A stretch of DNA of 64,000 bases from the NCBI RefSeq assembly GCF_053078305.1, contig NZ_CP166879.1, one strand, 5' to 3'. Of this stretch, positions 49,465-50,040 are shown one piece after another. A program made the translations under genes and the position numbers. The notes beneath the pieces were generated by a model, which was given only the letters and a program-made list of their open reading frames with translations, did no database searches and was not told where the DNA came from. The stretch's first letter is position 1; each line of letters starts with the position of its first letter.

Positions 49465-50040
49465 ATGGAATACTTTGATATGCGTAAAATGTCGGTAAAT
49501 CTGTGGCGAAACGCTGCCGGTGAAACGCGAGAAATTTGCACTTTCCCACCGGCAAAACGTGATTTTTACTGGCGTGCCAGCATTGCATCCATCGCGGCGA
49601 ATGGGGAGTTTTCTTTGTTTCCCGGTATGGAAAGGATAGTGACGTTGCTGGAAGGCGGCGAGATGTTCCTTGAAAGCGCAGACCACTTTAACCATACCTT
49701 AAAACCGTTACAGCCTTTTGCCTTTGCGGCGGACCAGGTGGTAAAAGCGAAACTGACGGCAGGGCAGATGTCGATGGATTTCAATATTATGACGCGCCTG
49801 GATGTCTGTAAGGCGAAAGTCAGAATTGCCGAACGTACGTTTACTACCTTTGGCTCACGCGGCGGGGTGGTGTTTGTGATTAACGGGGCGTGGCAACTGG
49901 GCGACAAACTGCTCACTACCGACCAGGGCGCGTGCTGGTTCGATGGCAGGCACACCCTGCGGCTTTTACAACCGCAAGGTAAACTGTTGTTCAGTGAAAT
50001 CAACTGGCTCGCTGGTCATTCGCCGGATCAAGTTCAGTAA
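49465..50040 (+). CDS. ves: HutD-family cold/osmo-responsive protein Ves (191 aa)
   Basis: Start at the ATG at 49465 ([14 protein letters not shown]...); 3' end overlaps cho. Confidence 0.85.

Follow-up and report, generated by a model that had tools for sequence, protein, structure and literature searches.

The coding sequences of ves and cho converge in Escherichia coli and share 41 bp at their 3′ ends, and we infer that this overlap is very probably a neutral by-product of two genes that are packed tail to tail without a spacer. By its architecture the pair is one of many E. coli convergent excludons, and any mutual regulation between the two genes is probably weak. The analysis was carried out on a window of 64,000 nt (the whole stretch of DNA studied, from contig NZ_CP166879.1), a segment of an E. 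coli chromosome in which the locus is ordered astE–spy–ves / cho–nadE–osmE. The two genes and their overlap are placed as follows.

49465–50040, plus strand: coding sequence of ves (HutD family), 191 aa with the annotated ATG as start, ending in TAA at 50038–50040
50000–50887, minus strand: coding sequence of cho (UvrC-like GIY-YIG nuclease), 295 aa with GTG as start, ending in TGA at 50000–50002
50000–50040, both strands: convergent coding overlap of ves and cho, 41 bp, at the 3′ ends

On the ves strand the overlap consists of 2 nt of codon 179, codons 180–191 and the stop, and on the cho strand of 2 nt of codon 283, codons 284–295 and the stop, with the ves TAA inside cho codons 283–284 and the cho TGA inside ves codons 179–180. 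The two frames are phased such that ves position 1 stands opposite cho position 1, ves position 2 opposite cho position 3 and ves position 3 opposite cho position 2. A preliminary description of the window had noted this 41-bp convergent overlap between ves on the plus strand and cho on the minus strand, and the open reading frames, the sequence, the RefSeq annotation and the K-12 coordinates (ydjQ 1821539–1822426 and ydjR 1822386–1822961, an overlap of 41 bp; Huang 2020, PMC7373196) all confirm it. RefSeq gives the same coordinates for ves and cho in strain PS10-3, which is 100% identical over the tested 1.8 kb, and annotates the same overlap in the most divergent E. coli match that was fetched (96.6% identity); 5424 of the 5426 complete genomes of E. 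coli carry the ves/cho locus. The overlap is already known, since all E. coli annotations show it and a published excludon catalogue includes the pair; a literature search under the old names ydjQ and ydjR found nothing on the overlap.

The possibility that one of the two reading frames was mis-called, which would make the overlap an artefact of annotation, is effectively refuted and retains virtually no probability; it was weighed because mis-annotation sometimes creates overlaps, and nothing in its favour came to light. The overlap is set by two stop codons and is therefore independent of the choice of start codons. Ves matches the curated NCBIfam equivalog NF008488 over its full length (E 5.5e-129; score 427 bits, cut-off 292), its residues 8–175 form a Pfam HutD domain (PF05962, E 5e-44) and its profile matches the HutD structures 5FCC and 1YLL. 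Cho residues 1–287 match the NCBIfam equivalog NF007833, ‘excinuclease Cho’ (E 3.7e-174; 578 bits against a cut-off of 367), and its N-terminal domain matches solved UvrC GIY-YIG structures. Orthologues of both proteins, at 63–99% identity, occur in dozens of species. The identities of ves and cho are firm, and both reading frames are real genes.

We then asked which parts of the 41 bp belong to the conserved proteins, with the ends of conservation judged over 78 Cho and 56 Ves orthologues. The conserved core of Cho ends in ..YEIxEL (..YEITEL in E. coli, where the L286 codon is 50030–50032) and that of Ves in ..SEIxWLxGH (..INWLAGH in E. coli, ending at G184/H185 with the H185 codon at 50017–50019). 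The two cores do not overlap each other and are separated by 10 nt, which divides the overlap into three parts.

50000–50019, both strands: end of the Ves core under the Cho tail and stop, 20 nt of the overlap
50020–50029, both strands: spacer between the conserved cores, 10 nt, translated in both frames (Ves S186–D188, Cho D287–A289)
50030–50040, both strands: end of the Cho core under the Ves tail QVQ and stop, 11 nt of the overlap

Past the cores, Ves carries a tail of 6 residues (SPDQVQ) and Cho one of 9 residues (DPANDQRAS). NDQRAS and the stop of Cho are the antisense of the Ves WLAGH codons, QVQ and the stop of Ves are the antisense of the Cho ITEL codons, and the Ves TAA itself is the antisense of the Cho ATT-ACT codons. 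Among Escherichia and Citrobacter, 6 of the 7 Ves third positions within 50000–50019 vary; these are Cho second positions, so that silent drift in Ves rewrites the Cho tail. At 50030–50040, 3 of 11 sites are polymorphic compared with about half elsewhere in the flanks, a difference that comes from a tiny sample and is compatible with a dual-coding constraint. Extra conservation across the overlap was considered as a claim and dropped, being visible only in these last 11 nt and in too small a sample.

It is very improbable that the tails are functional peptides that had to stay, for example a Cho tail needed for contact with UvrB. Such a role would fit the invariance of the 41-bp form within E. 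coli and in 15 of 15 loci from Escherichia and Citrobacter, as well as the fairly constant S-P-x-x-V-Q pattern of the Ves tail in these two genera. The constancy of the Ves tail is, however, accounted for by the conserved Cho codons on the other strand, and the Cho tail varies in sequence even inside Escherichia. Most other genera lack the tails or have different ones: Ves stops at H185 with no tail in most genera, an extension of 6 residues being confined to Escherichia and Citrobacter and one of 15 residues to two odd loci, and Cho extends 0–9 residues past L286 across its orthologues. AlphaFold models built from the orthologue alignments also place the last strands at Ves 173–181 and Cho 282–285 and have low confidence for both tails (pLDDT below 50 at Ves 189–191 and Cho 291–295).

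The neutral origin of the overlap is supported by its history in other species. The cho loci of 80 other species were fetched and both genes located in each. In 58 of the 80, all Enterobacteriaceae, ves is adjacent to and convergent with cho at a stop-to-stop distance of −45 to +48 nt, and the reading frames overlap in 53 of these 58 species, the remaining 5 being without overlap. The lengths found were the following.

Overlap of 4 nt: 5 loci, Kosakonia (shared TTAA stops)
Overlap of 7 nt: 6 loci, Phytobacter and others
Overlap of 10 nt: 1 locus, Franconibacter helveticus
Overlap of 15 nt: 3 loci, Kosakonia oryzendophytica and others
Overlap of 23 nt: 16 loci, most Enterobacter, Lelliottia
Overlap of 32 nt: 5 loci, Leclercia, Silvania and others
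Overlap of 41 nt: 15 loci, all Escherichia and Citrobacter loci that carry ves, and only these genera
Overlap of 45 nt: 2 loci, the two odd ones
No overlap of ves and cho: 5 loci, gaps of +3, +28, +46, +46 and +48 nt

The step from 23 to 41 nt is accounted for by a Ves stop that was lost (CAT TGA became CAT TCG), after which the frame ran on for 6 codons, with the Cho stop placed identically relative to the Ves core in both groups, and the overlaps of −23, −32 and −41 differ by multiples of 9 nt. In this antisense phase there are 0.053 stops per codon and open runs have a median length of 11 codons, so tails of 6 and 9 codons are what chance leads one to expect. About 20 of the species examined have lost ves and kept cho intact, and the four loci with the larger gaps have a GC-rich perfect hairpin between the two genes.

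Those four loci (L047, Enterobacter sp. ENT03; L050, Pseudescherichia vulneris; L056, Escherichia sp. ESNIH1; L064, UBA7338) contain a 49–69-nt spacer with the perfect GC-rich hairpin, for example GCCTGCCGT-TGACGC-TACGGCAGGC; two different hairpin sequences occur among them, and neither is accompanied by T-tracts. Within E. coli, strain 09A19CPO004B has an IS1 in the spy–ves spacer, upstream of ves, and in strain HCP4S3_I4 a Mu-like prophage end with Mom/Com genes is inserted in cho, leaving the last 300 nt of that gene, overlap included. Some labels of the sampled loci are odd: a contig named ‘Chryseobacterium sp. 18061’ (L044) carries an enterobacterial cho–ves locus nearly identical to that of ‘Citrobacter sp. 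18056’ (L071), and the metagenome-assembled genome ‘Citrobacter sp. HRGM_Genome_0066’ has the locus twice, once in an E. coli-like form (98%, L002) and once in a Citrobacter-like form (L061). Contamination or chimeric bins probably explain both cases.

Tight convergent packing is also common around the pair. Of the nine convergent pairs in the 64-kb window, two overlap and five leave at most 8 nt between the genes, the second overlap being that of ynjH and nudG.

32505–32539, both strands: convergent coding overlap of ynjH (plus) and nudG (minus), 35 bp

Near-abutting convergent pairs in the window include yoaI/yeaK, with 0 nt between them (334/335), ydjO/tcyP, 3 nt apart (about 61871/61875), and ynjF/ynjE, 8 nt apart (33619/33628). 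As judged from these sequence comparisons, the length of the ves/cho overlap is incidental and the feature that is conserved is the absence of room for a terminator. The same comparisons provide an argument against neutrality, in that a terminator-less abutment kept in about 50 species of many genera could be selected rather than tolerated.

The features of the junction that bear on transcript ends are listed here.

49953–49981, minus strand: 12-bp hairpin in the 3′ untranslated RNA of cho, −21.7 kcal/mol, z −3.8, 0/200 shuffles, no U-tract
50080–50340, plus strand: stretch with C in excess of G downstream of the ves stop, C/G 1.3–1.9, candidate Rho loading region
49770–49950, minus strand: stretch with C in excess of G downstream of the cho stop, C/G 1.3–1.9, candidate Rho loading region
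49282–49340, both strands: hairpin of the spy terminator, folding in either orientation and each time followed by a U-rich tract

A scan of 49700–50500 for the terminator consensus found nothing at the junction and only weak, chance-level matches elsewhere. The plus-strand RNA after the ves stop folds no better than shuffled sequences (z −0.99), and the minus-strand RNA after the cho stop has no hairpin with a U-tract. A bidirectional intrinsic terminator, that is, a GC-rich hairpin with an A-tract and a U-tract, was thus not found at the ves/cho 3′ ends, and an Rfam scan of 48400–52300 placed no family at the overlap. Published end mapping is in line with this: Term-seq (Adams 2021) gives no 3′ end at the ves/cho junction and lists none on the cho strand in the upstream (5′) part of ves or in the ves–spy spacer, and SMRT-Cappable-seq lists neither a termination site for cho nor a transcription unit for ves. 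Past both stops there are about 200–260 nt of C-rich, G-poor untranslated RNA, and the composition of these stretches is compatible with Rho loading.

The 12-bp hairpin lies 19–47 nt past the cho stop, within ves codons 163–173. It is kept in all Escherichia representatives, where base changes preserve the pairing, and it might protect the 3′ end of the cho RNA; so stable a structure just past the cho stop throughout Escherichia is a second point that speaks against strict neutrality. As a conserved part of the overlap it was rejected, since Citrobacter, whose overlap is likewise 41 bp, lacks it, as do most other genera. Some Enterobacter have a different hairpin at this position.

The first terminator-like structure that read-through RNA from cho would encounter is the spy hairpin, about 700 nt from the junction. 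In relatives that have spy and lack ves, cho is convergent with spy, and the spy hairpin starts 3–45 nt after the cho stop. This set comprises Salmonella, K. pneumoniae, Raoultella, C. sedlakii, Intestinirhabdus and Enterobacter 10-1 (loci L006, L009, L010, L017, L066, L067, L069, L080 and L081). Flanked by an A-tract and, on its opposite side, by a T-tract, the spy hairpin is in these relatives a predicted bidirectional terminator common to cho and spy, and ves with its promoter looks like a unit of ~0.7 kb which some species have, and others lack, between cho and this hairpin.

Published RNA data show transcription across this junction in the cell. From Huang 2020 (PMC7373196; Tables S1b, S1c and S3), we took total-RNA reads per million (RPM), which come from single samples, and the positions of duplexes defined by RNase III.

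cho, sense/antisense RPM: wild type 7.9/19.2, rnc-14 6.4/22.0, rnc-38 5.7/34.6
ves, sense/antisense RPM: wild type 156.7/4.7, rnc-14 173.0/1.8, rnc-38 244.7/8.6
50207–50229, both strands: RNase III-defined 21-bp duplex in cho, 167–189 nt past the ves stop
49878–49900, both strands: RNase III-defined 21-bp duplex in ves, 100–122 nt past the cho stop
49590–49613, both strands: RNase III-defined 22-bp duplex in ves, 387–410 nt past the cho stop

In this one dataset ves RNA reaches a moderate level and the sense RNA of cho a low one, and in unstressed cells antisense reads exceed sense reads over cho. Normalised for length, ves antisense (~8 RPM per kb) roughly equals cho sense (~9 RPM per kb). 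Double-stranded RNA captured with p19 amounted to 66–75 RPM for cho, 106–117 for ves and 4–7 for spy in the main samples E and S, and to lower values in four replicates (cho 20–73, ves 4.5–24 RPM). The RNase III duplex sequences map exactly to the window, 100–410 nt beyond the overlap and on both sides of it. Table 1 of the ExcludonFinder paper (PMC12288877) places cho–ves among 165 convergent excludons found in at least 50% of 58 MG1655 transcriptomes, and nudG–ynjH, ynjE–ynjF and yeaK–yoaI are in the same list.

On these published data the transcript overlap of ves and cho is real and much wider than 41 bp. The preliminary description had presupposed that the two mRNAs do not end before the overlap, and this holds, given the lack of a terminator at the junction, the antisense reads and the RNase III duplexes. 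Its further claim, that each gene sends antisense RNA across the end of the other, stands as to direction, because published RNA runs both ways; the 41-bp overlap as the unit of that effect does not stand, the RNA overlap being hundreds of nucleotides long and the coding overlap varying in length by genus.

A functional excludon would be the selective counterpart of this picture: the terminator-less junction would have been selected, transcription of ves (driven by sigma-28 and low temperature) would hold down cho, and cho, once induced by SOS, would hold down ves, by polymerase collision and/or by RNase III cleavage of the sense–antisense duplex. We consider this unlikely, even though several observations fit it, namely p19-captured double-stranded RNA over cho and ves several-fold above the neighbouring spy in six of six datasets, discrete RNase III duplexes on either side of the junction, the excess of antisense over sense reads on cho and the tight convergent layout in 53 of the 58 species with adjacent genes. 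Four lineages have nevertheless accepted an inserted hairpin and about 20 have lost ves with cho intact, and LexA and premature termination by Rho already limit the expression of cho. HutD-family proteins are also not known to be linked in function to nucleotide excision repair, which counts against it as well. Membership of cho–ves in the core E. coli excludome favours such a function, as far as the list in PMC12288877 goes; the main text of that paper, however, reports no inverse expression for the pair, the 20 inversely expressed excludons being set out in its Supplementary Table S2. An indirect datum is that cho sense RNA does not rise in either of the two rnc mutants (PMC7373196), and the available rnc data contain no hint of reciprocal regulation.

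How each gene is controlled bears on the same question. The sequence of the cho LexA box we take, after Fernandez de Henestrosa 2000, to be CACTGGATAGATAACCAGCA.

49385–49412, plus strand: sigma-28 (FliA) promoter of ves, exact match to a published FliA ChIP site sequence
49404–49411, plus strand: −10 element of this promoter, GCCGATAA
50901–50920, minus strand: putative LexA box of cho, exact match to CACTGGATAGATAACCAGCA
50853–50913, minus strand: region of premature cho termination by Term-seq (K-12 1823539 and 1823784)

The published transcription start of cho (K-12 1823491, window 50911) falls inside the putative LexA box, and cho is entered among the genes with a ‘known SOS box’ in Table 1 of PMC6590174. 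With a matching box at its promoter and a listing as LexA-regulated, cho belongs to the SOS regulon, as the preliminary description had assumed. A nadE–cho read-through transcript has been reported, which means that cho is also fed from nadE. Within cho, Term-seq locates a Rho-dependent premature 3′ end 24 nt into the gene and a bicyclomycin-sensitive site ~270 nt in, and a rifampicin time-series paper records, at cho, only a ‘Termination’ event near the 5′ end. Much of cho transcription may thus never reach the overlap in unstressed cells. The proposal of antisense RNA upon induction of ves by cold or osmotic stress needs correction: antisense is already dominant over cho without stress and so is not specific to those stresses. 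The ves promoter is of the sigma-28 type.

The nadE–cho spacer itself contains a match to the Rfam small RNA ES036/CssrF at 50995–51037 on the minus strand (42.9 bits against a gathering score of 37.6) and a REP-like inverted repeat at 51045–51086, where the published 3′ end of nadE is also located (K-12 1823351, window 51051).

Together, these data allow us to propose how two genes packed tail to tail would come to overlap with little consequence. Each reading frame runs past its conserved core to the first in-frame stop within the antisense of its neighbour. Since no terminator fits between the genes, both mRNAs necessarily enter the neighbouring gene, and they do so as untranslated antisense RNA. 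They would probably be stopped there in a diffuse manner, by Rho or by head-on encounters of polymerases; alternatively, the cho RNA would possibly end only at the spy terminator. The ves and cho RNAs form double-stranded RNA, which RNase III cuts, and how much cho is expressed would depend mainly on LexA and on premature, Rho-dependent termination close to the 5′ end of the gene.

It is conceivable that cho read-through RNA spans all of ves, given the antisense coverage and the duplex ~400 nt into that gene, although Term-seq lists no 3′ end to match. On a more far-reaching scheme, cho would lack a terminator of its own in all ves-carrying Enterobacteriaceae, cho and nadE–cho RNA would run antisense through the whole of ves to the spy terminator (~49280), and ves RNA would cover the 3′ part of cho, so that LexA/SOS, sigma-28 with motility and cold, and, via spy, Cpx/Bae would be coupled in cis, with ves transcription setting the basal level of Cho as a back-up excision nuclease and SOS silencing ves. 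We regard this scheme as quite unlikely. One part of it, an effect of ves transcription on the basal level of Cho, is possible in view of the antisense excess over cho and is a further argument against strict neutrality.

If such interference in cis were true, it would form a small, testable link from transcription regulated by motility or cold to the basal level at which an SOS nuclease is expressed. It would be wrong to take the 41-bp coding overlap for a designed regulatory element, its length being an accident of where the stops fall, and any biology here would reside in the conserved lack of a terminator and in a transcript overlap over hundreds of nucleotides. The overlap matters little for its own sake, and the useful outcome is a negative one.

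Among known systems, convergent overlaps reportedly arise through loss of a stop codon and 3′ extension, as Rogozin et al. 2002, Fukuda et al. 2003 and Johnson & Chisholm 2004 are said to have described. The ves/cho pair resembles these cases in that the genes share their 3′ ends only, the overlap consists of unconserved C-terminal extensions, and its length shifts by gain or loss of stops and by small in-frame indels. It differs from the commonest, 4-bp convergent overlap of the TTAA type in being 41 bp long, and the 4-bp state is found here in Kosakonia. The excludon concept, reportedly due to Sesto et al. 2013, refers to overlapping transcripts of oppositely oriented neighbours. As in excludons, the ves and cho transcripts overlap, the pair has an entry in the catalogue list of PMC12288877, and double-stranded RNA and RNase III products are formed. 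The pair differs in that the main text of PMC12288877 reports for it no inverse or mutually exclusive expression, the outcome by which an excludon is defined, and in that the rnc mutations leave the level of cho sense RNA unchanged.

Bidirectional intrinsic terminators common to convergent genes were reportedly described with SEnd-seq by Ju et al. 2019. Like such pairs, ves and cho are convergent and their transcripts meet head-on; unlike them, the E. coli ves/cho junction has neither a hairpin nor a U-tract, and it is the cho/spy hairpin of the ves-less relatives that is exactly of the bidirectional-terminator type. Head-on collision of RNA polymerases aids termination, according to a preprint on the subject (bioRxiv 10.1101/2022.10.23.513370). 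Finally, ynjH/nudG in the same window has the architecture of ves/cho and, at 35 bp, an overlap of similar length, and it is likewise listed as a convergent excludon, in a pair of different genes.
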